A DNA stretch of 27,250 bases from Patescibacteria group bacterium (GTDB taxonomy: Bacteria > Patescibacteriota > Patescibacteriia > Magasanikbacterales > GWA2-37-8), in the NCBI GenBank assembly GCA_004321885.1, contig SCQK01000009.1, positions 1-27,250 of the forward strand. Direction: 5' to 3'. Positions 3,484 to 25,270 of this stretch are shown one piece after another. Position 1 is the first letter of the stretch; the number at the start of each line of letters is the position of its first letter. A program made the position numbers and the translations under genes. The notes beneath the pieces are model-generated. The model was not told where the DNA came from. It was given only the letters and a program-made list of their open reading frames with translations, and made no database searches.

Positions 3484-4623
3484 ATGGCTCTTTTCTTCCC
3501 CGGACTTTCAAAGACGTTTCTCGGACGCTACGAAAACAACCCCAAAGAGCTCCGCGTTCTCCAAGTGATCTGCGAACACCTGCGCAGTGGTTACACCACT
3601 GGAAAAAAGCGCGGCGCTGGATCTAAGGAAGACAAGGTCTTTCAAGACGCGAAGGACTCCCTGGAAAAAGAAGATGTCCCCTTGGAAAGAAAGGACTTCA
3701 TCTACATCAAAGCCGGGATCCGAATCGCCTACAAAATCCTCGTGGGCGAAGAGGGTGAGGATACGAGCACCACGCTTTCAGAAAACATCATCTCGGATTT
3801 GCGTGTGGATGGCATAACAAACTGGACAGAGGTGCTCCGGGCAAACGGCGACCTGGACTATCTGTTCAAGAATGAGCGCGAAACGGCCGCGCGGGCCGAA
3901 GCCGCGCTCACAGAAGCCCAAGCAACTCTGGAAAAGCTGGCGTCGCGCACCAACAAGGTGCGCGTGAGCGAAAAGCTCATAACCTTGGTTGGCGAACTGC
4001 TTCCCACGCTGGAGGATGTCCTCGCGGAAAACGAATCGCTCAAGGAGGCGGCATCGCGATTCGCCGAAGAGCGAACAGAATCAGAACGTAAGCTTCTCGA
4101 AGCCGAAACAATGATTCGCCTGCTCGAAGAGGACAACGATTCGGCCCAGGGCCGTTTGGACAGCGTCAGGGCAGAACTCCGGAAGGCCCATGACCTCTCG
4201 GTCTTGCAATTGGCTCTCCAATATCCACAGCATCCCCAGCTCATGGAGATAGCCCAACGCATTGAGGAAGATAAGAAGCAAGGGCAAAACGAGATGGGGA
4301 CGTTGGTTGCCCAACTACCAAAAACCTACACTGGAGGAACGATAGAATACAAGCAACGATTCCTCCGACTACTGTTCGATCTCGCGCGAAACGAACAGGA
4401 GCAGATCATCGGTCAACTGCGAAATCTGGCCGAACAGGGGCCGAAGCATGCTTCCTTGCACACGAGGAAGACGCAAATACGTCTCCTCTACAGCCCGATG
4501 GACTGCATGGTTTCCCGCGGCGCGGATGACATCCGCTTCACATGGAGCAAGGAGAACGGCGCGATTACCGTTCACTGGCTCTACCGAAAGGGCGATAGCC
4601 GCGTGCGTCAATCCGAGGCATAA
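3484..4623 (+). CDS. hypothetical coiled-coil protein in a GC-rich (foreign-looking) segment
   Basis: ATG preceded by AAGGAG 8 nt upstream. About 57-60% GC against an AT-rich neighbour. Central E/R/L/A-rich heptad-like region. Intrinsic terminator follows immediately. Confidence 0.6.
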   Translation: MALFFPGLSKTFLGRYENNPKELRVLQVICEHLRSGYTTGKKRGAGSKEDKVFQDAKDSLEKEDVPLERKDFIYIKAGIRIAYKILVGEEGEDTSTTLSENIISDLRVDGITNWTEVLRANGDLDYLFKNERETAARAEAALTEAQATLEKLASRTNKVRVSEKLITLVGELLPTLEDVLAENESLKEAASRFAEERTESERKLLEAETMIRLLEEDNDSAQGRLDSVRAELRKAHDLSVLQLALQYPQHPQLMEIAQRIEEDKKQGQNEMGTLVAQLPKTYTGGTIEYKQRFLRLLFDLARNEQEQIIGQLRNLAEQGPKHASLHTRKTQIRLLYSPMDCMVSRGADDIRFTWSKENGAITVHWLYRKGDSRVRQSEA

Positions 4624-8741: not shown

Positions 8742-9893
8742 ATGTACCCAGCACGGTTAATTTTAAACACCGGCCAAGAATTTCTCGGCCTTTCACCCGC
8801 CTGGCAAAAAGGCGACTTTTACGGTTTACCCTCACACCAAAAATTTTGGTGTGAGGGCGAGGTTGTTTTTACGACCGGCATGACCGGCTATGTGGAAACT
8901 CTCACCGATCCTTCGTATGCCGGACAAATTATCGTCTTCACCTATCCGCTCATCGGCAACTACGCCGTGCCGCCGGCCAAATTCTGGGAATCGGAAAAAA
9001 TCCACGCGGCCGGAGTGGTGGTAGGCGAGGCGTGCCAGTGGCCTGATACCCCCTCCTCACCTCCCTCCCGAAACAAGTTCGGGACAGGCTCTTATAAAGG
9101 GGGAGGGACTTTGGCCGGATGGCTAAGAGAACAAAAGGTGCCTTTACTCACCGGGGTGGATACTCGCCTGCTTACCAAAACACTACGCGAGAAGGGTGCC
9201 ACGCCCGGAGCGATTACGTCTTACCCCTACCTAACCTCCCCCTTAAAAAGGGGGAGGAACAGGAGGGGGTATAATTTCTTTGACCCGAACGAAACAGATC
9301 TGGTGGCGCTGGTTTCTCCCAAAAGACCGACCACTTACGGCAAGGGGAAAAAGAGAATCATCGCCGTTGATTGCGGGATGAAAAAAAATCTGCTCCGCTC
9401 ACTCTTAAAATTACCGCTGACTATAAAAATCGTGCCGTACGACTACGATTATAACAAAGAAAAATTTGACGGCGTGTTTATCTCCAATGGCCCGGGCGAC
9501 CCGGAACGTTGCGGCCGAACGATAGAAATTCTGCGCCGCGCCATGAAAAAGAAAAAACCGATTTTCGGCGTCTGTCTGGGCAACCAGCTGTTAGCACTGG
9601 CGGCCGGAGCCAAAACCTACAAACTGCCCTTTGGCCACCGCGGACAAAATCAACCCTGCCAAGACAGCGCCACTGGCCGTTGTTATATCACCAGCCAAAA
9701 CCACGGCTACGCCGTGAACCCGGCCACCCTGCCGCCGGACTGGCGCGTGAGTTTCAAAAACTTAAACGACGATTCAGTGGAAGGCATCGGCCACAAATCA
9801 TTGCCGTTTTTCGCCGTGCAATTTCATCCCGAAGCGGCGCCCGGCCCCGCAGACACGCAGTGGCTTTTTGAAAAATTTTATGAAACTTTATAA
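8742..9893 (+). CDS. carA: carbamoyl-phosphate synthase small (glutaminase) subunit
   Basis: 'VVFTTGMTGYVETLTDPSYAGQIIVFTYPLIGNY', 'PIFGVCLGNQLLALAAGAKTYKLPFGHRGQNQP' (catalytic Cys), 'FAVQFHPEA'. Two in-frame family B element insertions. Confidence 0.9.
   Translation: MYPARLILNTGQEFLGLSPAWQKGDFYGLPSHQKFWCEGEVVFTTGMTGYVETLTDPSYAGQIIVFTYPLIGNYAVPPAKFWESEKIHAAGVVVGEACQWPDTPSSPPSRNKFGTGSYKGGGTLAGWLREQKVPLLTGVDTRLLTKTLREKGATPGAITSYPYLTSPLKRGRNRRGYNFFDPNETDLVALVSPKRPTTYGKGKKRIIAVDCGMKKNLLRSLLKLPLTIKIVPYDYDYNKEKFDGVFISNGPGDPERCGRTIEILRRAMKKKKPIFGVCLGNQLLALAAGAKTYKLPFGHRGQNQPCQDSATGRCYITSQNHGYAVNPATLPPDWRVSFKNLNDDSVEGIGHKSLPFFAVQFHPEAAPGPADTQWLFEKFYETL
9049..9108 (+). repeat. family B element (compound) in-frame in carA
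   Basis: 'cccctcctcacctccctcccgaaacaagttcgggacaggctcttataaagggggaggg' encodes 'PSSPPSRNKFGTGSYKGGG'. Contains inner hairpin TCCCGAA-acaag-TTCGGGA. Confidence 0.6.
9235..9272 (+). repeat. family B element in-frame in carA
   Basis: 'cctccccc-ttaaaaa-gggggagg-aacaggagggggtat' encodes 'SPLKRGRNRRGY'. Confidence 0.65.
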
Positions 9894-12800
9894 AGTTATA
9901 ATTCTCGGTTCCGGAGGATTGCAAATCGGCCAGGCCGGCGAGTTTGATTATTCGGGCTCCCAGGCCATCAAGGCCCTGAAAGAAGAAGGCATCAAAACCG
10001 TGCTGGTAAACCCCAACATCGCCACTGTTCAAACCGACCCAAACATGGCTGACGCGCTCTATCTTCAGCCGCTCAATTTTCAAACACTTAAAAAAATTAT
10101 CGCCAAAGAAAAACCGGACGGCATTTTGCTCGGCTTTGGCGGACAAACCGCGCTCAATCTGGGTTTGGAACTGGATGAAAAAGCCGTACTCCAAAAATAC
10201 GGCATGGCCGTGCTGGGTAGCGATACGCAAACAATACGAACAGCCGAAGACAGAAATTTATTCAAAATCGCGCTGGCGAAAATCGGAGTGAAGACTCCGA
10301 AAAGTTTTACCGCGCGCGACGTGAATGAAGCGCTGGCCGCGGGAAAACAAATCAGCTACCCCTTGATGATTCGCAGCGGCTTCTCTTTGGGCGGACTTGG
10401 TTCCGGAAAAATCGCCGACGCGCGGGAACTGAAACAACGCGCAGGCGAAGCGCTCTCCGGCGCCCCGCAAATCCTGGTGGAAGAATACCTGGGCGGCTGG
10501 AAAGAAGTGGAATACGAAGTGGTGCGCGACAGAAAAGACAACACCATTATTGTCTGCAACATGGAAAACATGGACCCGATGGGCATCCATACCGGTGAGA
10601 GCATCGTGGTGGCGCCTTCGCAGACCTTGAACAACGAACAGTATCATCGCCTGCGCGAGCTGTCCATCAAAATCGCCCGCCACCTGAAAATCATCGGCGA
10701 ATGCAACGTGCAATTCGCCTTGCACCCGAAAACCGGCGACTATCGCGTGATAGAACTCAACCCGCGCCTGTCGCGTTCATCGGCTCTGGCTTCCAAAGCC
10801 ACGGGCTATCCCCTGGCCTACATCGCGGCCAAGCTGGCCATCGGCAAACTTTTGCCTGAACTCAAAAATTCAGTCACCAAAAAAACCTCGGCCTTTTTTG
10901 AACCGGCCTTGGATTATCTGACAATAAAAATTCCGCGCTGGGACACAAACAAACTGCGCTCGGCCGAACGCTCCATCGGCTCGGAGATGAAAAGCGTGGG
11001 CGAAGTGATGGCCATTGGACGCTCGTTTCCCGAAGCATTGCAAAAAGCCGTGCGTATGCTGAATATCGGCGCCGACGGGCTAAGCGATTATCCGTTTCCC
11101 ATCGCCGAACCGAAAAAAGAAATGGAGAACGCCACCGACCGACGTTTGTTCGCGCTTTACCAATTTTTTAAAAAAGGCGGCGGCGTAAAAGAAGCCGGGC
11201 AACTTACGAGTATAAACGAATGGTTTCTGGCGCACATCAAAAACATCGCGGCGCTGGAAAAAACAATCAAAAATAAACGACTAACGCCAGCCCTGCTTTT
11301 ACAAGCCAAGCAATTCGGCTTTAGCGACGTCGGTCTGGCAAAATTAAAAAATACTGACGAGAAAAAAATCAGGCGCCTGCGCAAAAAAAACAAAATCCTG
11401 CCGTGCTTTAAACAAATAGACACCCTGGCCGGCGAATATCCGGCCGAGACGAATTATTTATACGCCACCTACCACGGCGCCGGACACGATATCGCCGCTT
11501 TGGACAAAAAACCGATCATCGTCCTCGGCTCTGGTCCGTACGCCATCGGTTCGTCGGTGGAATTTGACTGGTGCGCCGTGAACACGGCCCGCGCCCTGCG
11601 CGCCTTGGACAAAAAAACAATAATGCTCAACTCCAATCCGGAAACAGTCTCCACTGACTACGACGAATCCGACCGTTTGTATTTTGAAGAGCTGACTTTG
11701 GAGCGCGTGGCTGACATCGCTGATTTTGAAGGCGGCGCGAAGGCGTCTTTTGAATCTACACCCGGCATTGTTGTTTCGGTCGGCGGACAAATCGCCAATA
11801 AAATCGCTCTGCCGCTTTTTGAAATGGGTTATAAAATTTTAGGCACCCCGCCCGTGGCCATAGACCAGGCCGAAGACAGACAAAAATTTTCCTCACTCTT
11901 GAATAAATTAAAAATAGACCAGCCGGAATGGATTGAGTCGGGTAATTTGAGTAAAGCCAAGGCTTTCGCCAAAAATTTCGGGTATCCGGTCCTGGTGCGG
12001 CCGTCATACGTGCTCTCTGGCGCGGCCATGAACGTGTGCCCGAACGAAGATGAACTGACAAACTATCTACGTTCGGCTTCGGCCGTTTCTCCCGACCATC
12101 CGGTGGTTATTTCCAAATTTATCACCAATGCCAAAGAGTTAGACATAGACGGAGTGGCCGACAAGGGAAAAATTATAATAGAAGCGATTTGCGAACACGT
12201 GGAAAACGCGGGCGTGCACTCGGGCGACGCCACCCTGGTCTTGCCCCCGCAAAAACTTTATTTGGAAACGATTCGCCGCGCCAAAAACATCGCTCGCGCC
12301 ATCGCCAAATCACTCAAAATCACCGGGCCCTTTAACATCCAGTTCATTGCCAAGGATAACGCGCTCAAAGTGATAGAGTGCAACTTGCGCGCTTCCCGCT
12401 CTTTTCCTTTCGTATCCAAAGTGACCGGACATAATTTCATAGAACTGGCCACCAAGGCCATGCTGGGCGGTGTTGGAGTTCCTCCCCCTCTTAGGGGGAG
12501 GATAAAGGAGGGGGTATTTGAAACCCTGGAGCTCAACCACGTCGGCGTGAAGTCGCCGCAATTTTCTTACCACCGACTGAAAGGAGCCGACCCGGTGGCG
12601 CAAGTGGAAATGGCTTCCACCGGAGAGGTGGCCTGTATCGGCGGCGATTATTTGCGCGCCTTTTATTCTTCCTGGCTGGCCACGGGCAAAAATATCAGCC
12701 GCCGCCGGGCGCTTGTCACCATTGCCGATGAATGCAAACAAAAATTCTTGCCATTAGTGAAAAAAATGGACAAACAGGGCTGGGAAATATATACTACTGC

Positions 12801-13110
12801 CGGCACCCACGACTTTTTGTCGCGCCACGGAGTGGCCAGCAACTTTGTTTACAAAATCAGCGAGCAAAACAAGCCGAACGTGGAGGCAACGATTTCAGAA
12901 AAGCAAGTTGACGTAATCATTGTCATTCCGAGCGAAGCGAGGAATCTCTGTTTATCAAACGACAGCGACGGCTACAAAATTCGCCGGCTGGCCACGGACC
13001 GCCACATCCCACTTATCACCAACTCGCAAACCGCTATTTTGCTCTTGCGCTGTCTCACCGAACTTGACGCCAATAAAATGCCGATAAAATCGTGGCAAGA
13101 ATATTTTTAA
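9868..13110 (+). CDS. carB: carbamoyl-phosphate synthase large subunit
   Basis: 1080 aa. Two ATP-grasp halves ('[20 protein letters not shown]', '[20 protein letters not shown]') and a C-terminal MGS-like domain. Overlaps the carA 3' end by 26 nt. Confidence 0.95.
12481..12517 (+). repeat. family B element in-frame in carB
   Basis: 'cctccccc-tctta-gggggagg-ataaaggagggggtat' encodes '[13 protein letters not shown]'. Confidence 0.7.
12921..12946 (+). repeat. family A short hairpin element in-frame in carB
   Basis: 'tgtcattccgagcgaagcgaggaatc' encodes 'VIPSEARNL' in the MGS-like domain. Confidence 0.6.
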
Positions 13111-13191
13111 TGTCATTGCGAGGAGCGGAGCGACGAAGCAATCCCATACAATTAAGGGGATTGCCACGGCCCTGCGGGCCTCGCAATGACA
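13111..13191 (+). repeat. family A full-length palindromic element filling the carB-pyrB intergenic space
   Basis: Begins immediately after the carB TAA. Termini 'tgtcattgcgagg...cctcgcaatgaca' are 13-bp perfect inverted repeats. Inner hairpin 'gcaatccc...gggattgc'. Confidence 0.75.
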
Positions 13192-13199
13192 ATACAATT

Positions 13200-14120
13200 A
13201 TGCCAAACACACTCAAAGGCAGGGACATAATTTCCATCGCGGAACTTTCCAAGCCGGAAATTCTGCTGGTGCTAAAAAACGCGCAAGAATTAAAAAAACA
13301 CCCGCGCCCGAAACTGCTGGAAGGGCTGGTGATGGGCAGTTGTTTTTTTGAACCCAGCACGCGCACGCGCTTGTCGTTTGAAACAGCCATGCAGAAGTTG
13401 GGCGGACGGGTAATCGGCTTTGCCGACCCGGGCGTGACTTCGGCCAAGAAAGGCGAGTCGCTGTACGACGCCATAAAAATCATCGGCCAATACGTGGATG
13501 TCATCGCCATGCGCCATCCGTTGGAGGGAGCGGCGCGACGCGCGGCCGAGGCCACGGACAAACCAATCATCAACGGCGGCGACGGAGCCAACCAGCACCC
13601 CACCCAAACCCTGCTGGACTTGTTCACTATTCAAGAATGCCAGAAAAAATTAAGCAACCTTCATATCGCCATGGTCGGCGACCTGAAATATGGCCGCACC
13701 GTGCACTCGCTGGCCCAGGCGCTTACCCATTTTGGCGCCCGCCTGTATTTCGTGGCGCCCGACAGCTTGCAGATGCCCGCGTATATTTGCGATGAATTAA
13801 AAACCAAAGGCGTCAAATTCTCCATGCACAAAAAAATGGAAGAGGTAATCGGCAAAGTTGATATTTTTTACATGACCCGCATCCAGGGCGAACGTTTTGC
13901 CGACCCGATGGAGTACGAAAAAGTAAAAAACAGTTTCGTGCTCAAGGCCGACATGCTAAAAAACGCCAAACCAAACCTGAAAATCTTGCACCCCTTGCCG
14001 CGCGTGAACGAAATTGAAACAGCCATAGACAAAACAAAATTCGCCTACTATTTCCAGCAAGCGGAAAACGGGCTCTATGCCCGCCAGGCCCTGCTGGCGA
14101 TGGTGTTGGGAAAAATTTAA
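13200..14120 (+). CDS. pyrB: aspartate carbamoyltransferase catalytic subunit
   Basis: '[11 protein letters not shown]', 'HPTQTLLDL' and 'LHPLPR' motifs. Start taken at 'MPNTLKGRD' (ATG 13200), just after the element. The ORF-track 13092 start reads through the palindrome. Confidence 0.9.
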
Positions 14121-14123
14121 TAA

Positions 14124-14208
14124 TGTCATTGCGAGGCCCAAGGGGCCGAAGCAATCTCAGACAAGTAAGGGATTGCCACGTCGGCCTGCAGGCCTCCTCG
14201 CAATGACA
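14124..14208 (+). repeat. family A full-length palindromic element filling the pyrB-pyrI intergenic space
   Basis: 'tgtcattgcgagg...cctcctcgcaatgaca'. Same architecture as 13111-13191, with a different centre. Confidence 0.75.
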
Positions 14209-14216
14209 AAAATTTT

Positions 14217-14681
14217 ATGAAAGAAAAAAAACTTTTGGTCAACGCCATAAAAAACGGCACGGTGATAGACCACATCACCGCCGGTAGCGCGCTCAAAATC
14301 ATCCGCATCCTCAATCTGGCCAGCCACGAAAAAGTCGTGACGGTCGGGCTGAACTTGCCCAGCAAATCCATGGGGCGCAAGGACTTAATCAAAGTAGCCG
14401 AGCGCGAACTTTCACCCGATGAAGTAAGCAGCGTGGCCATTCTGGCGCCGCAAGCCAGCATCAACATCGTCAAAAATTACGAAATAGTTAAAAAATTTAA
14501 AATAAAACTACCGGAAAAAATTGAGAGCGTAGTTGTTTGCCCCAACCCGAAATGCATTACCAACCACGAGCCCATGGCCAGCGTGTTTTTTATTCTGCCC
14601 AACGGCAAACACATTAAACTGCGTTGTAAATATTGCGAAAAAGTTTTTGGTCACGATGATATCCGTGAATATAGAGTATAA
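14217..14681 (+). CDS. pyrI: aspartate carbamoyltransferase regulatory subunit
   Basis: 'AIKNGTVIDHI', 'GLNLPSKSMGRKDLIKV', zinc domain 'CPNPKCITNHEP...LRCKYCEKVF'. Confidence 0.9.
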   Translation: MKEKKLLVNAIKNGTVIDHITAGSALKIIRILNLASHEKVVTVGLNLPSKSMGRKDLIKVAERELSPDEVSSVAILAPQASINIVKNYEIVKKFKIKLPEKIESVVVCPNPKCITNHEPMASVFFILPNGKHIKLRCKYCEKVFGHDDIREYRV

Positions 14682-14690
14682 AAACACCAT

Positions 14691-15857
14691 ATGAGCCGGC
14701 TCATAACTTTACCCGCTTTGATTGACCCGCACGTGCATTTTCGTACCCCGGGTTCCGAGCACAAAGAGGATTGGATTTGCGGAGCGCGCGCCGCCTTCGC
14801 CGGCGGATACACCACGGTGATTGACATGCCGAACAACAACCCGCCGGCGATTGATGAAGAGTCATTGAATAACAAAATCAAGCTCGTGGAACAACAACTG
14901 TCATTCCTGCGAAAGCAGGAAGGGAGCCCTTCGGGCTCGGAATTCATTTCTGTCCACCCATATTTTTATCTCGGGGTTACTCCCCTCCCCCTTGATAAGG
15001 GGGAGGCAGGGTGGGGGTCGGCGGTAGCCCTCAAAATGTTCATGGGTTCCAGCACCGGCAGTTTGCTGGTGGACAAATACGAAGACCAGGAAAAAATATT
15101 CGCCAAAGCCGCTGAACTTGATTTGCTGGTGGCAGTGCACGCAGAAGATGATGAAACAATAAAAAATAATCAACTGTCATTCCAGCAAAAGCTGGAATCC
15201 ATCGCCAATCCAGTCGCTCTTCACTCGCAAATCCGCTCGCGTGAGGCGGCGATAAAAGCCGTGTCGCAAGCGATTGAACTGGCGGAAAAGACCGGCGCGC
15301 GATTATATATCTGCCATATTAGCACAAAGGAAGAAGCTGAATTGGTTAAATCGGCTAAAGAGCGCGGAGCCAAAATTTATGCCGAAGTCACACCGCATCA
15401 TTTGTTTCTGAACGAAAGCGCGTATGAAACATTGGAGACAAAAGCGCAAATGAATCCGCCTCTGCGCACGGCCGCGGACCAAGCGGCGCTCTGGCAGGCG
15501 ATAAACGACGGAGTAATAGACACCATCGGCACCGACCACGCTCCGCATACTTTGGAAGAAAAAAATCAACCATACCCCAAATCGCCTTCGGGCGTGCCCG
15601 GCATTGAGACATGTTTGCCGCTATTGCTCAACGCGTACAATCAGGGTAAAATCAGTTTAGAGAAAATAGTGGAATTATGCCGGACAAATCCGCAAAAAAT
15701 ATTCCGTTTGCCTGATAACAGTGACGAGGTGATTGTGGATTTGGATTTGGAAAAAGAGGTAAAAAATGAGAATTTAAAAACTAAATGCGGCTGGTCGCCC
15801 TTTGCTGGGTGGAATCTAAAGGGGTGGCCGATAAAAACGATAATTATGAAAAAGTAA
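14691..15857 (+). CDS. pyrC: dihydroorotase
   Basis: 'LIDPHVHFRTPG' metal-binding motif, 'GTDHAPH'. Contains three in-frame element insertions. The stop codon lies inside the left terminal repeat of a MITE-like element. Confidence 0.85.
   Translation: MSRLITLPALIDPHVHFRTPGSEHKEDWICGARAAFAGGYTTVIDMPNNNPPAIDEESLNNKIKLVEQQLSFLRKQEGSPSGSEFISVHPYFYLGVTPLPLDKGEAGWGSAVALKMFMGSSTGSLLVDKYEDQEKIFAKAAELDLLVAVHAEDDETIKNNQLSFQQKLESIANPVALHSQIRSREAAIKAVSQAIELAEKTGARLYICHISTKEEAELVKSAKERGAKIYAEVTPHHLFLNESAYETLETKAQMNPPLRTAADQAALWQAINDGVIDTIGTDHAPHTLEEKNQPYPKSPSGVPGIETCLPLLLNAYNQGKISLEKIVELCRTNPQKIFRLPDNSDEVIVDLDLEKEVKNENLKTKCGWSPFAGWNLKGWPIKTIIMKK
14899..14921 (+). repeat. family A short hairpin in-frame in pyrC
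   Basis: 'tgtcattcctgcgaaagcaggaa' is TTCCTGC-GAAA-GCAGGAA. Encodes 'SFLRKQE'. Followed by a small hairpin 'gagccc-ttc-gggctc'. Confidence 0.7.
14982..15018 (+). repeat. family B element in-frame in pyrC
   Basis: 'cccctccccc-ttgataa-gggggagg-cagggtgggggt' encodes 'PLPLDKGEAGWG'. Confidence 0.7.
15175..15198 (+). repeat. family A short hairpin in-frame in pyrC
   Basis: 'tgtcattccagcaaaagctggaat' is ATTCCAGC-AAAA-GCTGGAAT. Encodes 'LSFQQKLE'. Confidence 0.7.
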
Positions 15858-16028: not shown

Positions 16029-16982
16029 ATGAAACATCTAATCTCCCTAAAGGAACAAACAAAAGAAGACCTGCTGGAAATTTTGGATTTAGCAAAAAAA
16101 GTTAAAGCCACATACAAGGCCGGTGAGACGATGGAGCCATTAAAAAACAAAACCCTGCTCATGCTTTTTCAAAAAAGCTCCACGCGCACGCGCCTGTCGT
16201 TTGAGGCCGGCATAACCGAACTGGGCGGACACGCCATTTTTCTGGACAGCCGCGCCACGCAATTTTCGCTCACTGATTTCGGCGATGAAATAAAAGCCGT
16301 AATGCGCTTTGGCGACATCCTGATGTTTCGGGCCATGAAAGCGGCGGACGTGGAAAAGGCGGCGGGCTTCAATCAGATTCCGGTGATAGACGGTTGCAGT
16401 GAAAAATATCACCCGTGCCAGGCCTTGGGAGACATTTTGACAATGAGTGAGCATGCCAATGGACTGGAAAACGTGAAAAAAATCACTTGGCTGGGAATTG
16501 AAAACAACGTCTCTAACACCCTGACGCTGGCCGGCGCCAAACTGGGAATTGAAGTGACCATCGCCGCGCCCGAAGCCAACCCGGCCAGCGTGGACGCGGA
16601 GTTAAACGCCCAGGCCTCTGCCGTCGGCAAAGTGACACGCACTTTGAATTTGGCCGAAGCGCTGGCTGGCGCGAATTTCATCCACACCGACACCTGGATG
16701 GATATGGAATTTTTTTCCGACGGAAAAGTGAAGCCGCAATTTGAAGCCGAATACGAACGGCGCAAACGGGTGTTCACGCCTTTTCAACTAAACGCGGGCT
16801 TAATAAACACCCACGCCCCGCAAGCGAAAATTATGCACTGCATGCCGTGTCATGTGGGCTATGAAATTTCACGCGACGCCATAGACCATCCCAATTCAAT
16901 AATTTTTGACCAGGCGGAAAATCGCAAACACATCCAAAAAGCGATTATTCTTTGGCTACTTGGTATTCCCTCCCCTTTATAA
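16029..16982 (+). CDS. ornithine-carbamoyltransferase-family transcarbamylase paralog (substrate uncertain)
   Basis: 'STRTRLSFE', 'HPCQALGDILT', 'HCMPC' (OTC HCLP-type) and a C-terminal 'SIIFDQAENRKH' closely like OTCase. The ornithine-binding 'DxxxSMG' is 'DTWMDME'. Confidence 0.75.
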   Translation: MKHLISLKEQTKEDLLEILDLAKKVKATYKAGETMEPLKNKTLLMLFQKSSTRTRLSFEAGITELGGHAIFLDSRATQFSLTDFGDEIKAVMRFGDILMFRAMKAADVEKAAGFNQIPVIDGCSEKYHPCQALGDILTMSEHANGLENVKKITWLGIENNVSNTLTLAGAKLGIEVTIAAPEANPASVDAELNAQASAVGKVTRTLNLAEALAGANFIHTDTWMDMEFFSDGKVKPQFEAEYERRKRVFTPFQLNAGLINTHAPQAKIMHCMPCHVGYEISRDAIDHPNSIIFDQAENRKHIQKAIILWLLGIPSPL

Positions 16983-17004
16983 GGGGAGGGTTAGGGTGGG
17001 GTAT
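16968..17004 (+). repeat. family B element spanning the OTC-paralog stop and the pyrD RBS
   Basis: 'ccctcccc-tttataa-ggggaggg-ttagggtggggtat'. The TAA stop of the upstream gene is inside the hairpin loop. GGGTGGGG lies 5 nt before the pyrD ATG. Confidence 0.7.
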
Positions 17005-17005
17005 T

Positions 17006-17917
17006 ATGCTCACCACAACTTTCCTCAACAAAACTTTCGCCAATCCCATCGTGCTCGCCTCGGGCATTCTTGGCGTGTCGGCCGCCAGTTTGGCGCGGGC
17101 GGTGAAAGATGGCTGCGGCGGAGTGACGGCCAAGTCGGTCTCGCTTGAACCGCGCTCCGGTCATCCCAATCCCACCACCGCCGGCATGGAGCATTTTTTC
17201 ATCAACGCGGTTGGACTTTCCAACCCGGGCGTGGACGCGGCGGTGGAAGAACTGAAAAAATTCAAAGAATTATCCGTCTCACCGCTCATCGGCAGTATTT
17301 TCGCGGGCACGCCTGAGGAGTTCGCCGTCGTGACGGAAAAAATTTGCGCGGCGCCAATTGATTTTCTGGAAATCAATGTTTCCTGCCCGAACGTAAGCAA
17401 AGAATTCGGCAAACCGTTTGCTTACTCCACCGAAGCCGTGGAAATTATCACCAAAAAAGTAAAAGCCAAAGCGACTGTGCCGATAATAATAAAACTTTCT
17501 CCCAATGCCTGGAACATAGACGAAATCGCGCTGGCGGCCGAAACCGCCGGCGCCGACGCCCTTTGCGCCGTCAACACCATCAGCGGCATGATAATTGACT
17601 GCCACAGCCGCAAACCGATATTGCACAACAAACAGGGCGGGGTTTCGGGTCCGGCGCTGCTGCCTATCGCGCTAAAATGCGTGTATGACATTTACAAAAA
17701 AGTGAAAATTCCCATCATTGGCACAGGCGGCATTTGTTCTGGCGAAGACGCGCTGGCCATGATTATGGCCGGAGCGGCTTTGTTGGGTGTTGGCTCGGCC
17801 GTGTATTTCCGCGGGAGCGAGGTGTTTGAAAAAATTTGCGAGGAGATGGAGAAAATAATGGAAGAGGAAGGGATAAAAAATTTGGAGGAAATCCGCGGCG
17901 CGGCGCACTCATCATGA
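17006..17917 (+). CDS. pyrD: dihydroorotate dehydrogenase (class 1B) catalytic subunit
   Basis: 'NPIVLASGILG', 'GLSNPGVDA', 'NVSCPN', 'IIGTGGICSGEDA'. Start taken at 'MLTTTF' after the element-supplied RBS. Confidence 0.85.
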   Translation: MLTTTFLNKTFANPIVLASGILGVSAASLARAVKDGCGGVTAKSVSLEPRSGHPNPTTAGMEHFFINAVGLSNPGVDAAVEELKKFKELSVSPLIGSIFAGTPEEFAVVTEKICAAPIDFLEINVSCPNVSKEFGKPFAYSTEAVEIITKKVKAKATVPIIIKLSPNAWNIDEIALAAETAGADALCAVNTISGMIIDCHSRKPILHNKQGGVSGPALLPIALKCVYDIYKKVKIPIIGTGGICSGEDALAMIMAGAALLGVGSAVYFRGSEVFEKICEEMEKIMEEEGIKNLEEIRGAAHSS

Positions 17918-18072: not shown

Positions 18073-18945
18073 ATGGATAGTACAAAATTCTTAAAAATAG
18101 AAAAAATAACAGACGAAACCCCGTTCGTCAAAACATTCTATTTTAATCATCGCCTAAACAGCAAGCCCGGGCAATTTGTGATGCTCTGGCTACCGGGAAT
18201 TGACCAAAAACCGTTTTCCATCGGCTGGGAAGATGAAAACGGCTTTGCCCTGACTGTGTTCAATCGCGGACCGACGACGAACAAACTGTTTGAAATGAAA
18301 GCCGGCGAACGAGTGGGCATTAGCGGGCCCTACGGTACTTCTTTTTCCGTGCGCCCAAACACGCGCTATATCATGGTCGCCGGCGGCTATGGCGCCGCGC
18401 CTCTTTCTTTTTTGGCCAAGCAGCTATCTGTCATTGCGAGGAGCGTAGCGACGAAGCAATCCCAATCTACAAAAATTGATTTCCTCCTCGGCGCCCGCTC
18501 GGCCGAACACGTGCTATTTGAAGACCGTCTGTCAAAATTACCCAACACCAAAATCCACATCGCCACCGACGACGGCAGTAAGGGACATAAGGGATTTGTG
18601 ACCGACCTGCTTTCATCTGTCATTCCTGCGAAAGCAGGAATCCACGACAACTCACTGGATGCCCGTTTTCACGGGCATGACATATTCGTCTGCACTTGCG
18701 GCCCCGAACTGATGGAAAAAAAAGTTTTGGACGCTTGCAACGTCGCCGGCGTGGAATGCGAAATCAGCATTGAACGCTACATGAAATGCGGCGTGGGCGT
18801 GTGCGGACAATGCGCCGTGGACGACCTGGGCCTGCATATGTGCAAAGAAGGGCCGGTGGTAAGCGGCGCGCTCGCCAGTCAAATTAAAGAGTTCGGCGTC
18901 TACCATCGCGACAAAAGCGGGAAAAAAGTATACTTCGAAAATTAA
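18073..18945 (+). CDS. pyrK: dihydroorotate dehydrogenase electron-transfer (FAD/2Fe-2S) subunit
   Basis: FAD/NAD-binding fold and C-terminal 'CGVGVCGQCAV' cluster motif. Two in-frame family A insertions. Confidence 0.85.
   Translation: MDSTKFLKIEKITDETPFVKTFYFNHRLNSKPGQFVMLWLPGIDQKPFSIGWEDENGFALTVFNRGPTTNKLFEMKAGERVGISGPYGTSFSVRPNTRYIMVAGGYGAAPLSFLAKQLSVIARSVATKQSQSTKIDFLLGARSAEHVLFEDRLSKLPNTKIHIATDDGSKGHKGFVTDLLSSVIPAKAGIHDNSLDARFHGHDIFVCTCGPELMEKKVLDACNVAGVECEISIERYMKCGVGVCGQCAVDDLGLHMCKEGPVVSGALASQIKEFGVYHRDKSGKKVYFEN
18429..18463 (+). repeat. family A half-element in-frame in pyrK
   Basis: 'tgtcattgcgaggagcgtagcgacgaagcaatccc' matches the left 35 nt of the 13111 element with one mismatch. 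Encodes 'SVIARSVATKQSQ'. Confidence 0.75.
18618..18642 (+). repeat. family A short hairpin in-frame in pyrK
   Basis: 'tgtcattcctgcgaaagcaggaatc' matches the pyrC copy at 14899. Encodes 'SVIPAKAGIH'. Confidence 0.75.
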
Positions 18946-18961: not shown

Positions 18962-19006
18962 AAAAAAAGAAAAAGCTCTCATTCCGTGCGATGACGAAAC
19001 GAGAGC
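18962..19006 (-). terminator. rho-independent terminator for the - strand GC-rich gene
   Basis: - strand: GCTCTCGTTTCG-loop-CGGAATGAGAGC (imperfect 11-bp stem) followed by TTTTTCTTTTTTT. Confidence 0.5.
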
Positions 19007-19082
19007 GAAACGAACCGAGGGACCAAGTGACCCAAGCCCTTCCGATTTGGCGAAAGGGCTGAGGCACCAAGGATCCCAGGGC

Positions 19083-19730
19083 CTACTTGCCGCGAGGAAG
19101 GAGATAGGAGGCGCCGAAGCCGTAGACAACCCAGCGGACGTCCAGCACCCAGCGAGCGCCGACCCAGGAGAGACAGGCCACGTAGAGGCCGCCACGCCGG
19201 CCGCGCAAAAGCGTGCCCGGCAGGACGATGATCTTGTCCTGCATCTCCTTCGGGATCTCGGCCTGGCACTCCAGCATACGCTTGCCATCCACCAGGCCGT
19301 AGTTGGCCTTGAGGACGACGGCGCGGGCGCGCATGACCTCGCCGTTGACATAGCCCGGGTCATCGGGCTCGAGGAAGGACACATACTCCAAGTCCTTCAC
19401 CTCGAACTGCGACGGGGCCACATCCTCCACCACCTCCCACTTGCGCTTCTTGCCTGCCTCGTCCTCGTACTCGGGGATGAGGTCGGCGGCGAGCAACTCG
19501 GACGGGAGCTGGTCGCGCTTGATCGATGCCGCCACGCTTTCGCCGTTTTCCTCGCCGATCGGCTCCAGCTTCAGCCGGAGCTTGCCGGCGCGAAACAGCT
19601 CCACGTTCTGCGCGCCCGTCTCACATCCGCCGAACTCCGCCCACAGCTTGAGGATCATGGCCCAGATCTGCTTCCCTGTCAGACCCTCCAGCACGGCCTC
19701 CAGTGTCTTCCCTTCCACTCTCGAACTCAT
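19083..19730 (-). CDS. hypothetical protein in a GC-rich (about 62% GC) inserted segment
   Basis: ATG with AAGGAG 7 nt upstream. Balanced E/K/D/L composition, unlike the Ala/Arg/Leu-rich overlapping frames. Terminator downstream. Interrupts pyrK...pyrE. Confidence 0.5.
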   Translation of the reverse strand: MSSRVEGKTLEAVLEGLTGKQIWAMILKLWAEFGGCETGAQNVELFRAGKLRLKLEPIGEENGESVAASIKRDQLPSELLAADLIPEYEDEAGKKRKWEVVEDVAPSQFEVKDLEYVSFLEPDDPGYVNGEVMRARAVVLKANYGLVDGKRMLECQAEIPKEMQDKIIVLPGTLLRGRRGGLYVACLSWVGARWVLDVRWVVYGFGASYLLPRGK

Positions 19731-19895
19731 GGCTGTTCTCCTTTCCGGCGCCTCGCCAGAATGGCAATTTGCCCCGCCCCGGGGCTCGGGTTTTTATGCT
19801 AAAAATAACAAAGAGCTAACAGCGATTTATATCACAACATTACTGCTTCTGTCAAGCTAAACACCGTCACAACCGCCATATCCTTTCACAAACCC

Positions 19896-19928
19896 TTGCG
19901 CGATTATCTGCGCGATTCTTGCGCGATT
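19896..19928 (+). promoter_or_regulatory. three direct repeats of TGCGCGATT (11-12 bp spacing) just upstream of the fic -10
   Basis: 'ttgcgcgatt' 19896, 'ctgcgcgatt' 19908, 'ttgcgcgatt' 19919. Operator- or iteron-like. Confidence 0.5.
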
Positions 19929-19938
19929 TAATTTTTTA

Positions 19939-19947
19939 TGGTATGAT
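19939..19947 (+). promoter_or_regulatory. extended -10 promoter TGGTATGAT for fic-pyrE-pyrF
   Basis: TGnTATGAT 29 nt upstream of the fic ATG. Same box type as 'TGGTATAAT' at 6712-6720. Confidence 0.45.
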
Positions 19948-19975
19948 ATTGGCAAGGAATTCTTCGGCCTAAACT

Positions 19976-21031
19976 ATGTTTGAACCAAAGTATAAAATCA
20001 CCAATCAAATCATCCAGATGCTCACCGCCATCGCCGAGGCCAAGGCGATTATTGAACGCGCGCGCCTTTTGCCGAAGCACGAACTCAAACTGCGACGCCA
20101 GGCCCTTCTCCGCATGACCCACAGCTCCACGGCCATAGAAGGCAACCGGCTGAATATGCGCGAAGTGGAGGCCGTGGCGGCGCGCAAAAAAGTGGATGCC
20201 CCGGAACGCGAAATCTATGAAGTAAAAAACTACCTGGAAGCGATTCGCTACATTGAAAAAGTCGTAAAAAACAACCAGCCAATCACCGAAAAGATTATCT
20301 TACAAATTCACCGGCTTGTAACCGACAAAACTTTGCCGGCACATTCCTCGGGGCAATATCGCAAAGGGCCGGTGTATGTGGTGCGGCGCTGGAGAGACGG
20401 CCGCCAGGAAGTTTTGTATACCGCGGCTGGCGCCGGACAAGTCCCCGGTCTTATGGCCGGCTTAACGCGCTGGCTCGCTGAAAGTGAAACGCAAAATATC
20501 AGCCCAGTCATCGTGGCCGGTATCGCGCACCAGGAAATCGCGGCTATTCACCCCTTTGCCGACGGTAATGGCCGCACCGCGCGCGCCCTGGCCACGCTTA
20601 TCCTTTACCGACGCGGCTACGACTTTCGCCGCCTTTTCGCCCTGGAAGATTTCTACAACGAAGACAGGCCGTCGTATTATCGCGCCATCAACGTCGGCAA
20701 AAACTACCAACAGCGCCGCGTTGATTTTACGCCATGGCTGGAATATTTTGTGCGCGGATTTAAGGAAGAAATTATTAAAGTGAAAAATAACGTGCTCACA
20801 CTATCGGCCAAAAAGGTTGACAAAAAAATTGAAGCGCAAATTTATCTTGATAAAGACCAGCTCAAAATTTTGGAGTTTGCCGACCAGATGGGAAAAATAT
20901 CCGTGGGCGACGTGGTGGATATTTTGAGTTGTCCCAAACGCACCGCCCAATCGTATCTACAAAAATTAAAAAAACTGAAAATTATCCGGCAAGTCGGCAA
21001 AGGGCCGGCCAGCGGATATATAATAGCGTGA
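19976..21031 (+). CDS. fic: Fic/Doc family protein (class II, N-terminal inhibitory helix) with C-terminal winged-helix domain
   Basis: Fic motif 'HPFADGNGRTARAL'. Inhibitory motif 'STAIEG' ([ST]xxxE[GN]) near the N-terminus. C-terminal HTH-like 'ISVGDVVDILSCPKRTAQSYLQKL'. Stop is 6 nt before the pyrE ATG. Confidence 0.85.
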   Translation: MFEPKYKITNQIIQMLTAIAEAKAIIERARLLPKHELKLRRQALLRMTHSSTAIEGNRLNMREVEAVAARKKVDAPEREIYEVKNYLEAIRYIEKVVKNNQPITEKIILQIHRLVTDKTLPAHSSGQYRKGPVYVVRRWRDGRQEVLYTAAGAGQVPGLMAGLTRWLAESETQNISPVIVAGIAHQEIAAIHPFADGNGRTARALATLILYRRGYDFRRLFALEDFYNEDRPSYYRAINVGKNYQQRRVDFTPWLEYFVRGFKEEIIKVKNNVLTLSAKKVDKKIEAQIYLDKDQLKILEFADQMGKISVGDVVDILSCPKRTAQSYLQKLKKLKIIRQVGKGPASGYIIA

Positions 21032-21037
21032 TTTTTT

Positions 21038-21634
21038 ATGCTCAAGAAACTAATCATCAAACTCCACGAAATCAACGCCGTCAAATTCGGGGAATTCAAA
21101 TTAAAAAGCGGAATAATGTCGCCGATATACATTGACTTGCGGGTGACGATTTCTTATCCCGAAGTTTTGAAAATGGTGGCCGAGGCCATGTGGGAAAAAG
21201 TCAAAGACGTTAATTTTGATTTGATTTGCGGAGTGCCTTACACCGCCCTGCCCATTGCCACGGCCATTTCTCTGGCGCATGACAAACCAATGATCATGCG
21301 GCGCAAGGAAGTAAAGGACTATGGCACGAAAAAAGCGATTGAAGGCGCGTTTGTCGCCGGACAAAAAGTATTGGTGGTGGAGGATTTGGTGACGAGCGGC
21401 AGTAGTGTGTTTGAAACGATTGAACCTTTACAACACGAAGGATTGACGGTGAGCGATATTGTGGTGTTGGTGGACCGCGAACAGGGCGGCCGCAAGCATC
21501 TGGCGGAAAAAGGGTTTAATTTACATTCGGTTTTGACGATTTCGGAAATGTTAGCTGTTTTGGTAGAAGCCAGTAAATTGGACAACGCGATGGCGGATAA
21601 GGTGAAAGATTTTATAAACGCGAATCAAGTATAA
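21038..21634 (+). CDS. pyrE: orotate phosphoribosyltransferase
   Basis: 'KFGEFKLKSGIMSPIYIDLR' and PRPP motif 'VLVVEDLVTSGSS'. Confidence 0.9.
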   Translation: MLKKLIIKLHEINAVKFGEFKLKSGIMSPIYIDLRVTISYPEVLKMVAEAMWEKVKDVNFDLICGVPYTALPIATAISLAHDKPMIMRRKEVKDYGTKKAIEGAFVAGQKVLVVEDLVTSGSSVFETIEPLQHEGLTVSDIVVLVDREQGGRKHLAEKGFNLHSVLTISEMLAVLVEASKLDNAMADKVKDFINANQV

Positions 21635-21640
21635 CAAATA

Positions 21641-21754
21641 CCCCTCCCCCACCCTCCCCTTATAAAGGGGAGGGTGCAATTTTCCTCCCCCTTTATAAGG
21701 GGGAGGCTCGCCACCACACCAAATGCTTTGGTGTGGTGGCGAGGAGGGGGTAAA
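21641..21754 (+). repeat. two tandem family B hairpins plus a 14-bp perfect hairpin and SD tail in the pyrE-pyrF spacer
   Basis: 'ccctcccc-ttataaa-ggggaggg', 'cctccccc-tttataa-gggggagg', 'ctcgccaccacacc-aaatgcttt-ggtgtggtggcgag' (21707-21743), then 'gagggggtaaaaatt' before ATG. Confidence 0.7.
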
Positions 21755-21758
21755 AATT

Positions 21759-22520
21759 ATGAAATACAAACAACGCGCCGAGATGTGCGCCAATCCGACC
21801 GCCAAAAAATTACTTGAATTGATGAATGAGAAACAAACAAACCTGGCGCTGGCCGCGGACGTGACGACCAAAAAAGAACTGCTGGAAATCGCCGACACGT
21901 TGGGGCCGGAAATCTGCGTGCTTAAAACGCACATTGATATTATTGGGGATTTTGATTCTGATTTAATCATCCAGCTTCAGCGCTTATCAGAAAAACACAA
22001 TTTTCTTTTTTTTGAAGACCGCAAATTCGCTGATATTGGAAACACGGTCATGCACCAATACCAAGACGGCATTTATCACATCGCGGACTGGGCGCATATC
22101 GTGAACGCGCACACTGTTCCGGGTCCTGGAATTATTGATGGATTAAAAGAAGTGGGTCTGCCCAAAGGGCGCGGGTTGCTATTACTGGCGGAAATGAGCT
22201 CCAAAGGCGCTTTGGCGAGCGGCGCCTACACCGAAAAAACGATAAAAATGGCGCAGGCCAACAAGGATTTTGTCGTCGGCTTTATCACTATGCGCCAGCT
22301 AATTGACGACCCGTGTTTTATAAACTTCACGCCCGGGGTTCAGCTCGCCCAAGGAGCGGACGCGCTGGGCCAGCAATACAACACTCCGGAAAACGTCATC
22401 GCCAAACAAAAATCCGACATTATTATTGTCGGACGAGGCATTTACAAGGCCGCGGACCCGGTCGCCGAAGCGAAAAAATATCGCGAGGCCGGTTGGAAGG
22501 CCTACACTTCTATTATTTAA
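21759..22520 (+). CDS. pyrF: orotidine-5'-phosphate decarboxylase, eukaryote (URA3)-like type
   Basis: 'YKQRAE...[20 protein letters not shown]...[10 protein letters not shown]', '[16 protein letters not shown]', '[11 protein letters not shown]'. Long collinear similarity to fungal URA3 as I recall it. Start 'MKYKQRAE' after the element RBS. Confidence 0.85.
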
Positions 22521-23121: not shown

Positions 23122-24156
23122 TTAAAGTTCTACCCTCACCGAGAGACGGAAACCGCGCTTGGGATCCGGATGCCCGGCATCGTCCCCGTCAAACCCCGCC
23201 TGGGAAAAGCCCGGAACGAAGCACGCGTTCGGCACATCGCCGACTGAAACCGGCAAGTTGATAAAACGCGTCCAGGTATTGCTGTCTATTGGTCTAAGCG
23301 TGGTTGGTTGGGAACCGGTCGGGAATTTTTTTTTGATTAACTGGCTCTGAATGGTTTGCAGGGCGCCGTATTCGTGGGGGTTGGTAATATGGGCCTGCGA
23401 CAGCTTAGAGGCCGCGCGTTCCCGGTTTATAGCGGCGAATTCCGTTTTTTGATCATCCACTGTTTTATTGCAGGTGCGGGGGTCTGGTTTTTGACTGGGA
23501 TTCATCATTGCTATGTAGGGCCTGTCTGGAACGGCTTCCACCAACTCGGCGGCTTTGTCGTTGATAAGCCCGACGAAATGATTCCATTCCAGAAAGGCAT
23601 CGTTCACGTCTCGCTCCTGGCTTTCTTTAATCCAAATCGGCTTAAAGGCCTTTTTGAATTGCTCAACCGTGGTGTTTAGCTGGGTTGTCTTATCCGGCAT
23701 AAATATGGGAATGGAGCCGGCCGCGATCTCCTGTTCTATTGTTTTTCGCTTTTCGGGCGTGAGACGGCCAAAATCAGCCGTGCCGATATTGCCAGCCCAG
23801 GCCTCAAGATTCATAGCACGGTACATTTGTTGGTTGTCTTGCCGGACCTGCATTAAATCCCAGGTCATTTCTTTGTGTTCGTTGGCAATTGGATTTTGCT
23901 CAATACCCGGAATGCCGCTTTCAAGCAGGGCTTCGCGGAAGGGGTTGGTGGCGTTATGGACAGTAAACCGGCCCAAACGCTCTCTTTCTAATTGAGCGAG
24001 TTCATCCGGTGAAACTGTCCGGTACGGGCCACCATTGGCGTTTTGCGGAATATCTGATGGCTCGTCTGGCTGAGGCTGCTCTCCGACAATGCGGCGGTGA
24101 AGCCGATCGACTATTCCTTCGGCGATTCCCTCAATTCTTCCTATTCTTCGTGGCAT
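23122..24156 (-). CDS. hypothetical protein (no recognisable motifs)
   Basis: 344-aa ORF between nif3 and ruvA on the same strand. Normal composition. Start abuts a family B element. Confidence 0.5.
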   Translation of the reverse strand: MPRRIGRIEGIAEGIVDRLHRRIVGEQPQPDEPSDIPQNANGGPYRTVSPDELAQLERERLGRFTVHNATNPFREALLESGIPGIEQNPIANEHKEMTWDLMQVRQDNQQMYRAMNLEAWAGNIGTADFGRLTPEKRKTIEQEIAAGSIPIFMPDKTTQLNTTVEQFKKAFKPIWIKESQERDVNDAFLEWNHFVGLINDKAAELVEAVPDRPYIAMMNPSQKPDPRTCNKTVDDQKTEFAAINRERAASKLSQAHITNPHEYGALQTIQSQLIKKKFPTGSQPTTLRPIDSNTWTRFINLPVSVGDVPNACFVPGFSQAGFDGDDAGHPDPKRGFRLSVRVEL

Positions 24157-24164
24157 ACGTTTAA

Positions 24165-24250
24165 ACCCCCTCCTCTGTCCTCCACCTAAAAGGGGGAGAA
24201 AAGTGACAGTGTTACCCCTCCCTCGCCCTCCCCTTATAAAGGGGAGGGAA
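24165..24250 (+). repeat. compound family B element in the nif3-hypothetical spacer
   Basis: 'cccccctcctctgtcctccacctaaaagggggag...cccctccctcgccctcccc-ttataaa-ggggaggg'. Confidence 0.6.
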
Positions 24251-25233: not shown

Positions 25234-25270
25234 CTCTCCCCTTTATAAGGGGAGAGACAGAGAGGGGTAA
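25234..25270 (+). repeat. family B element upstream of nif3
   Basis: 'ctctcccc-tttataa-ggggagag-acagagaggggtaat'. Confidence 0.65.

Follow-up and report, generated by a model that had tools for sequence, protein, structure and literature searches.

The pyrF gene of the window (the whole 27,250-nucleotide stretch of DNA that was analysed) encodes an orotidine-5'-phosphate (OMP) decarboxylase (OMPDC) whose sequence places it in the UMPS/URA3-type subfamily of these enzymes, and not in the ordinary bacterial type. We are highly confident of the picture as a whole, which joins the family assignment, the intact catalytic residues, the eukaryotic affinity, the synteny in CPR bacteria, Chlamydiae as the nearest relatives and a presumed old transfer. 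OMP decarboxylase is a cofactor-free TIM-barrel dimer that converts OMP into UMP and CO2. The gene and its translation signal are located as follows.

21759..22520, plus strand: pyrF, OMP decarboxylase of the UMPS/URA3 type, 253 aa
21743..21750, plus strand: Shine-Dalgarno (SD) sequence GGAGGGGG of pyrF, 8 nt upstream of the ATG, read from the sequence

The reading frame stops at 22520, and its longest possible reading begins at 21723. This upstream start was set aside, because the SD, the starts of all homologues and the deposited protein favour 21759 (MKYKQRAE...). The deposited Patescibacteria orotidine-5'-phosphate decarboxylase (P0001, 253 aa) is 100% identical to the window PyrF. The Pfam family PF00215 matched over profile positions 1-221 of 221 (6e-64, 216 bits, cut-off 27), and the general pyrF model, type 1 (TIGR01740), over positions 1-216 of 216 (206 bits, cut-off 92.3). 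These Pfam and TIGR core models first match PyrF at residues 27-29. The N-terminal ~25 residues align to the start of the UMPS OMPDC domain, the alignments with 8u0z and the human enzyme running from query residue 2-5.

The catalytic Lys lies in VLKTHIDI, in register with human and plant UMPS. The Asp-x-Lys-x-x-Asp motif reads EDRKFAD and matches human and plant UMPS column for column. The phosphate-gripper and substrate residues are also kept, namely Ser (EMSS), Gln (GQQY) and Arg (GRG, in IIVGRGIY). Since the catalytic residues are all intact, PyrF should be able to carry out the last of the reactions encoded by a complete operon for de novo pyrimidine synthesis. It is predicted to be a functional stand-alone orotidine-5'-phosphate decarboxylase, whose activity we infer from these residues.

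The affinity to eukaryotes was measured by comparing PyrF with all PDB sequences using phmmer. The best match was the OMPDC domain of a plant UMPS (8u0z, 7.5e-97), which is 85% identical to spinach UMPS. Human UMPS followed at ~1e-90 and yeast URA3 at 1e-78, whereas all bacterial and archaeal PyrF structures fell between 1.6e-7 and 3e-4. PyrF also scored far below both NCBIfam models of the ordinary prokaryotic enzyme (NF001273, 52 bits, cut-off 193; NF010386, 69 bits, cut-off 208). The URA3-like OMP decarboxylase that an earlier note had proposed for this gene is thus borne out (eukaryotic structures at 1e-97 to 1e-78, prokaryotic ones at 1e-7 or above), and the URA3-type motifs which it quoted, including DIIIVGRGI, are present.

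The window PyrF has the fold and the catalytic and phosphate-gripper residues of human UMPS (2qcc and others), plant UMPS (8u0z) and yeast URA3 (1dqw). Along the entire domain, N-terminal helix included, it is 56-61% identical to these eukaryotic enzymes, and it is expected to catalyse the same reaction. Unlike eukaryotic UMPS, the window pyrF stands alone, has its own SD and is unfused to the orotate phosphoribosyltransferase (OPRT). It also differs from the eukaryotic UMPS and URA3 genes in lying in an operon with prokaryote-type carAB, pyrB/I, pyrC and pyrD(1B)/pyrK. Ordinary PyrF proteins (E. coli 1eix, B. subtilis 1dbt, archaeal 4lui/2cz5) share PF00215, the reaction and DxKxxD with the window PyrF, but the resemblance to this type (NF001273, NF010386) reaches only 1e-7 to 1e-4 and stays under the curated cut-offs. 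An ordinary bacterial PyrF that recalls URA3 through universal active-site conservation would carry DxKxxD and GRG too, as these motifs are common to all OMP decarboxylases. Such conservation does not account for E-values that set eukaryotic and prokaryotic structures ~90 orders of magnitude apart, for 56-61% identity along the entire protein, its first 25 residues included, or for the failure at both NCBIfam cut-offs for ordinary prokaryotic PyrF. We consider this explanation exceedingly improbable.

Pairwise identities place the window PyrF at the centre of a eukaryotic star. It is 58% identical to the human enzyme, and the values for the plant, chytrid, yeast and amoebozoan enzymes are 58-61%, 60%, 56% and 53%. 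Among themselves these eukaryotic enzymes share 50-63%, and many pairs of them are further apart than the window PyrF is from each of them. Other bacterial members of the eukaryote-like subfamily show 44-59% identity to it. A bacterial subfamily that is as near to eukaryotes as these are mutually implies an ancient inter-domain transfer.

The search with PyrF returned at least 120 clusters at 71-100% identity, on contigs of up to 1.2 Mb; more than 100 CPR clusters lie at 70-84%. Most of the named clusters belong to Magasanikbacteria, and the others to Kaiserbacteria, Patescibacteria or simply "bacterium". Judging from these matches, the UMPS/URA3-type PyrF clade is widespread in Magasanikbacteria. 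The order pyrD-pyrK-pyrE-pyrF is kept in the related loci L001, L003 and L004. The abundance of homologues and the synteny in CPR ruled out contamination or a chimera. An artefact, with eukaryotic DNA mis-binned as CPR or chimerically assembled with it, or else a very recent transfer confined to this genome, has a single point in its favour, namely that the identity of PyrF to eukaryotic proteins is unusually high. Against it, pyrF lies inside a 27-kb Patescibacteria contig between the bacterial genes pyrE and ruvA, is preceded by a bacterial SD, forms an uninterrupted frame that aligns end to end with solved enzymes, and has the GC content of the rest of the window, itself typical. More than 100 CPR homologue clusters, with the same synteny and on contigs of up to 1.2 Mb, also speak against an artefact, to which we assign a negligible chance.

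The upstream pathway genes of the window were identified with NCBIfam and Pfam, and for pyrD also with the PDB.

8742-9893, plus strand: carA
9868-13110, plus strand: carB
13092-14120, plus strand: pyrB
14217-14681, plus strand: pyrI (regulatory)
14691-15857, plus strand: pyrC
16029-16982, plus strand: OTC-like gene, between pyrC and pyrD
16952-17917, plus strand: pyrD (class 1B)
18073-18945, plus strand: pyrK
21038..21634, plus strand: pyrE, orotate phosphoribosyltransferase of the UMPS-OPRT type, 198 aa

Together these genes cover the whole of de novo pyrimidine synthesis, and PyrF, encoded in the same operon, would catalyse its final step. The window has carA and carB as separate genes. The best PDB matches of PyrD are Lactococcus-type class 1B enzymes, and PyrC is about equally near to bacterial and CAD dihydroorotases. 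The earlier note described the other pyr genes as prokaryotic in form. This is true of carA/carB, pyrB/pyrI, pyrC and the class 1B pyrD/pyrK, but not of pyrE, which is UMPS-like; its eukaryotic bias, which parallels that of pyrF, escaped the note.

The OTC-like gene lies just under the NCBIfam cut-offs for OTC (279.1 against 280.85 and 291.7 against 306 bits). Its slot is occupied in L003 (5824-7434) by an argininosuccinate synthase-MGS fusion. Arginine-pathway genes are therefore interleaved in the pyr operon. An insertion that does not belong to the pathway separates pyrK from pyrE.

19083..21031, no strand assigned: insertion between pyrK and pyrE
19083-19730, minus strand: high-GC ORF of 215 aa within the insertion
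19976-21031, plus strand: Fic/DOC-family gene (phrog_5978, 3e-53)

The GC content is 0.59 over window positions 19001-20000, which hold part of this insertion. The 215-aa ORF had no match to a Pfam or PHROG family. In L003 and L004 the insertion is absent and pyrE directly follows pyrK, and in L001 a different ORF, of 298 aa and without a family assignment, lies between the two genes. Elsewhere in the window, the ORF at 51-3269 (1072 aa) has SNF2-family helicase domains and, towards its C-terminus, a methyltransferase domain. The ORFs at 23122-24156 (minus strand, 344 aa) and 3484-4623 (plus strand, 379 aa) had no Pfam or PHROG match.

The earlier note had proposed checking the neighbouring genes for similar affinities, and the adjoining pyrE provided such a case. 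PyrE matched the OPRT domain of human UMPS (2wns) at 2e-60 and Leishmania UMPS at 7e-41, as against ~1e-21 for bacterial PyrE structures and 2e-13 for yeast URA5. It scored 234 bits against the NCBIfam equivalog NF010382 (cut-off 208). The flexible loop RRKEVKDYGTKK and the PRPP motif VLVVEDLVTSGSS are conserved relative to human OPRT. Both halves of the animal and plant UMP synthase are thus present here as separate adjacent genes, in the OPRT-then-OMPDC order of the fusion, and the two window proteins show ~55-60% identity to these halves. The end of the pathway would run through two enzymes, PyrE forming OMP from orotate and PRPP, and PyrF converting OMP into UMP. A bifunctional UMP synthase, that is, an OPRT-OMPDC fusion, was ruled out because the domains are not in one polypeptide: the pyrE stop codon ends at 21634, pyrF starts at 21759 with its own SD, and a 124-nt spacer lies between them.

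The bifunctional OMPDC-OPRT of cyanobacteria and kinetoplastids has an OPRT half that resembles the window PyrE (NF004034, 191 bits; 3qw4, 7e-41), but its domain order is reversed and its domains are fused, whereas the window genes are unfused. The window PyrF showed no match to NF004034 at E<=0.001, and Leishmania 3qw4 was absent from its PDB matches.

A UMPS-type pyrE lies directly upstream of a UMPS-type pyrF, on one strand, in the window, L001, L005 (Chlamydiia), L006 and L009. The search for PyrE relatives in CPR had an outcome like that for PyrF, and some of the proteins found are annotated "uridine monophosphate synthetase". This label is misleading for bacterial proteins that are encoded by separate monofunctional genes. 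Two Magasanikbacteria loci, L002 (3307-3978) and L003 (9371-9991), carry a Thermus-type PyrE (TIGR01367-like, 120 bits) beside the eukaryote-type PyrF. This finding ruled out pyrE and pyrF as an inseparable, co-inherited unit and shows that the two have not always travelled together. Either some lineages had their pyrE replaced, or the gene of the UMPS type was gained on its own.

The pyrE-pyrF spacer of the window is itself unusual in length (124 nt, against 9-45 nt in its relatives).

21635..21758, plus strand: pyrE-pyrF spacer, 124 nt, with three tight G/C hairpins
21650-21676, 21684-21706 and 21707-21743: the spacer hairpins

The third hairpin (21707-21743) has a perfect 17-bp stem, and its last base is also the first of the pyrF SD (21743-21750). 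The first (21650-21676) fits a terminator-like pattern and is a copy of the window's repeated palindrome. No part of the window matched Rfam at the gathering threshold, which sets the hairpin spacer apart from known pyr attenuators and PyrR sites. The hairpins may terminate or attenuate transcription, or may represent an inserted repeat. A spacer rich in hairpins, one of them terminator-like, could uncouple pyrF transcription from that of pyrE here. The palindrome spans ~35 nt (TACCCCTCCC...CCCTCCCCTTATAAAGGGGAGGG) and occurs four times (16969-16989, 21653-21673, 24227-24247 and 25235-25255), with none expected by chance. Its copies lie at gene ends or intergenic sites, and the element resembles a repeated hairpin of the REP or terminator kind.

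To survey the family more widely, 1.84 billion representatives were scanned exhaustively with HMMER, which yielded 547 clusters with E<=1e-30; in this set of representatives the CPR clade counts as about one. Most of the best 150 of the 547 clusters are proteins of 400-600 aa with a C-terminal OMPDC, i.e., fusions, and the complete proteins among these 150 have an N-terminal OPRT of the UMPS type. The named eukaryotic members of the scan include spinach, a chytrid, a yeast, an amoebozoan and ticks. The closest representative from outside CPR was P0242, a protein of a Chlamydiia MAG with 60% identity to the window PyrF. When P0242 was used as the query, dozens of proteins from Chlamydiales, Waddliaceae and Chlamydiae were found at 57-67% identity, interleaved with CPR proteins. 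The nearest non-CPR bacterial relatives of the window PyrF, as ranked by these searches, are the Chlamydiae.

The locus of the Chlamydiia MAG (L005) has the order carA-carB-pyrB-pyrC-x-pyrD-pyrE-pyrF. In a tblastn comparison of the window operon with this locus, identities were 67% for CarA, 63% for CarB, 57% for PyrC, 48% for PyrB, 54% for PyrE and 61% for PyrF, whereas the two PyrD proteins belong to unrelated classes. CarA, CarB, PyrB and PyrC stand in the same gene order in window 8742-15857 and in L005 1-5870. The relationship between the window and the chlamydial genes possibly extends beyond pyrE/pyrF, perhaps to the whole operon.

Environmental Chlamydiae are known to have a complete pyrimidine operon (Rhabdochlamydia, Waddlia and Criblamydia; Pillonel et al. 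2019, PMC6490308). The closest RefSeq homologues of the chlamydial pyrE/pyrF were found in Streptophyta and Arthropoda, and the genes were counted among the known chlamydial cases of horizontal gene transfer (PMC6490308). A genome comparison of Chlamydia pneumoniae named pyrE "UMP synthase" in a table legend and orotate phosphoribosyltransferase in the text (PMC3091639). As in the window, pyrE and then pyrF close the full operon of these Chlamydiae, and the closest non-bacterial homologues of the pair are eukaryotic. Identity between the chlamydial and window proteins is 59-61% for PyrF and 54% for PyrE. The host phylum differs (Patescibacteria/Magasanikbacteria for the window pair, Chlamydiae for the known pair), and so does the composition of the locus: the chlamydial one has a single-subunit DHODH of 375 aa and lacks pyrI, whereas the window has a class 1B PyrD+PyrK and PyrI. 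Our literature search on CPR and OMP decarboxylase found no paper tying CPR bacteria to the eukaryote-like type.

Further carriers, listed here with their identity to the window PyrF, were classed as bacterial by gene context only.

L006: efp-nusB-pyrD-pyrE-pyrF, 57%
L007: pyrF alone in a Gram-negative neighbourhood, 46%
L008: secB-pyrF-cmk-rpsA, 48%
L009: pyrE-pyrF with GT9 and gyrB, 44%
L012 and L010: pyrE and pyrF fused, next to ankyrin-repeat genes, 50% (L012)

The ORF upstream of pyrF in L009 is a UMPS-type pyrE. The fused OPRT-OMPDC genes, which are UMPS-like, span 1701-3071 in L012 (456 aa) and 5001-6419 in L010 (472 aa). Both lie in compact bacterial contexts, and L012 has the order pyrD-pyrEF-EpmA-like. 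Eukaryote-like PyrF exists in bacteria both split and fused, and its carriers include further Gram-negative lineages. The earlier note had offered two options, a place in the eukaryote-like PyrF clade of some bacteria or inter-domain transfer, which are not alternatives. The clade was found in CPR, in many Chlamydiae and in at least five further bacterial contexts, and transfer holds together with membership of it. The contrary outcome that the note had named, an ordinary bacterial PyrF clade with many close bacterial neighbours, was found in part: the neighbours are many, but their clade is eukaryote-like.

The origin of the pair was examined with neighbour-joining (NJ) trees only, built from Kimura-corrected distances with bootstrap and midpoint-rooted without a true outgroup. 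CPR were monophyletic in 70% and Chlamydiae in 67% of the bootstrap replicates. CPR and Chlamydiae grouped together in 59% (PyrF, 39 taxa), 76% (PyrF, 40 taxa) and 79% (PyrE and PyrF concatenated) of the NJ replicates. This clan was sister to all other sequences in one midpoint-rooted NJ tree and stood beside human and plants in another. Eukaryotes were monophyletic in 0% of the NJ replicates, and deep support was weak. The alignment contained no shared indels that polarise eukaryotes against bacteria.

We take the inter-domain transfer as such to be established, and two directions were weighed for it. A fused eukaryotic UMPS may have been captured by an intracellular bacterium (Chlamydiae or similar), split, and later passed to Magasanikbacteria. 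This would fit the occurrence of the type in named fungi, plants, an amoebozoan, a tick and human, its patchiness in bacteria, and the many bacterial carriers that look host-associated (Chlamydiae and the ankyrin-rich L010 and L012). The split genes also retain the UMPS order, OPRT then OMPDC, the chlamydial genes are treated in the literature as transfers involving eukaryotes (PMC6490308), and one midpoint-rooted NJ tree nests CPR+Chlamydiae beside human and plants, with fungi and Amoebozoa outside. However, the split uniting CPR, Chlamydiae and eukaryotes reached 20%, and the placement was not reproduced in another NJ tree. The alignment contained neither a linker remnant nor an informative indel. 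Moreover, fungal URA3 is unfused and accompanied by a different OPRT type (yeast URA5, 2e-13 against the window PyrE), which implies that the fusion was not ancestral to all eukaryotes. We regard this eukaryote-to-bacterium route as a credible candidate, at somewhat less than an even chance.

In the opposite direction, a bacterial pyrE-pyrF operon would be ancestral, early eukaryotes would have acquired and fused it, and CPR and Chlamydiae would have kept slow-evolving versions. At least six bacterial contexts are known at 44-59% identity, several of which branch outside the named eukaryotes in the NJ trees, and both the split (L005, L006, L009, window) and the fused forms (L010, L012) are bacterial. 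The central position of the window PyrF in the eukaryotic star is also as expected of a short-branch relative of the donor. On the other hand, most bacteria have a clearly different PyrF, the bacterial carriers are few, and the rooting of the trees is arbitrary. A bacterial donor is possible in our judgement, but rather doubtful.

Our overall reading, an old transfer with Chlamydiae nearest, can be worded without fixing the direction. Horizontal transfer would long ago have brought the pyrE-pyrF pair into CPR. It would most likely have taken place within a bacterial gene pool in which Chlamydiae share, and this pool would be tied to eukaryotes by ancient inter-domain transfer. In a tentative and more specific proposal, which we think rather unlikely, the Magasanikbacteria pyrE-pyrF, perhaps with much of the operon, would belong to a pool of genes traded between CPR and Chlamydiae. 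From this pool the halves of the eukaryotic UMPS would have come, or else it would have arisen when a eukaryotic UMPS was captured and split in ancient times.

To our knowledge, most CPR bacteria are thought to be without de novo nucleotide synthesis. Here the pyrimidine operon is full and ends with two enzymes of eukaryotic type, which indicates that this pathway was assembled as a mosaic by gene transfer. As eukaryote-like pyrE/pyrF are already documented in Chlamydiae, the CPR case extends a known phenomenon, and Patescibacteria become a second, ecologically very different bacterial group with such genes. The present analysis adds the affinity of pyrE, the spread in Magasanikbacteria, the Chlamydiae as nearest bacteria, and the split and fused bacterial versions. 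The slow-evolving, short-branch CPR sequences could help to root the OMPDC/OPRT tree and to trace the halves of the eukaryotic UMP synthase. If the proposal of a CPR-Chlamydiae pool is true, the flow of genes between domains for a central step of biosynthesis would include CPR bacteria.
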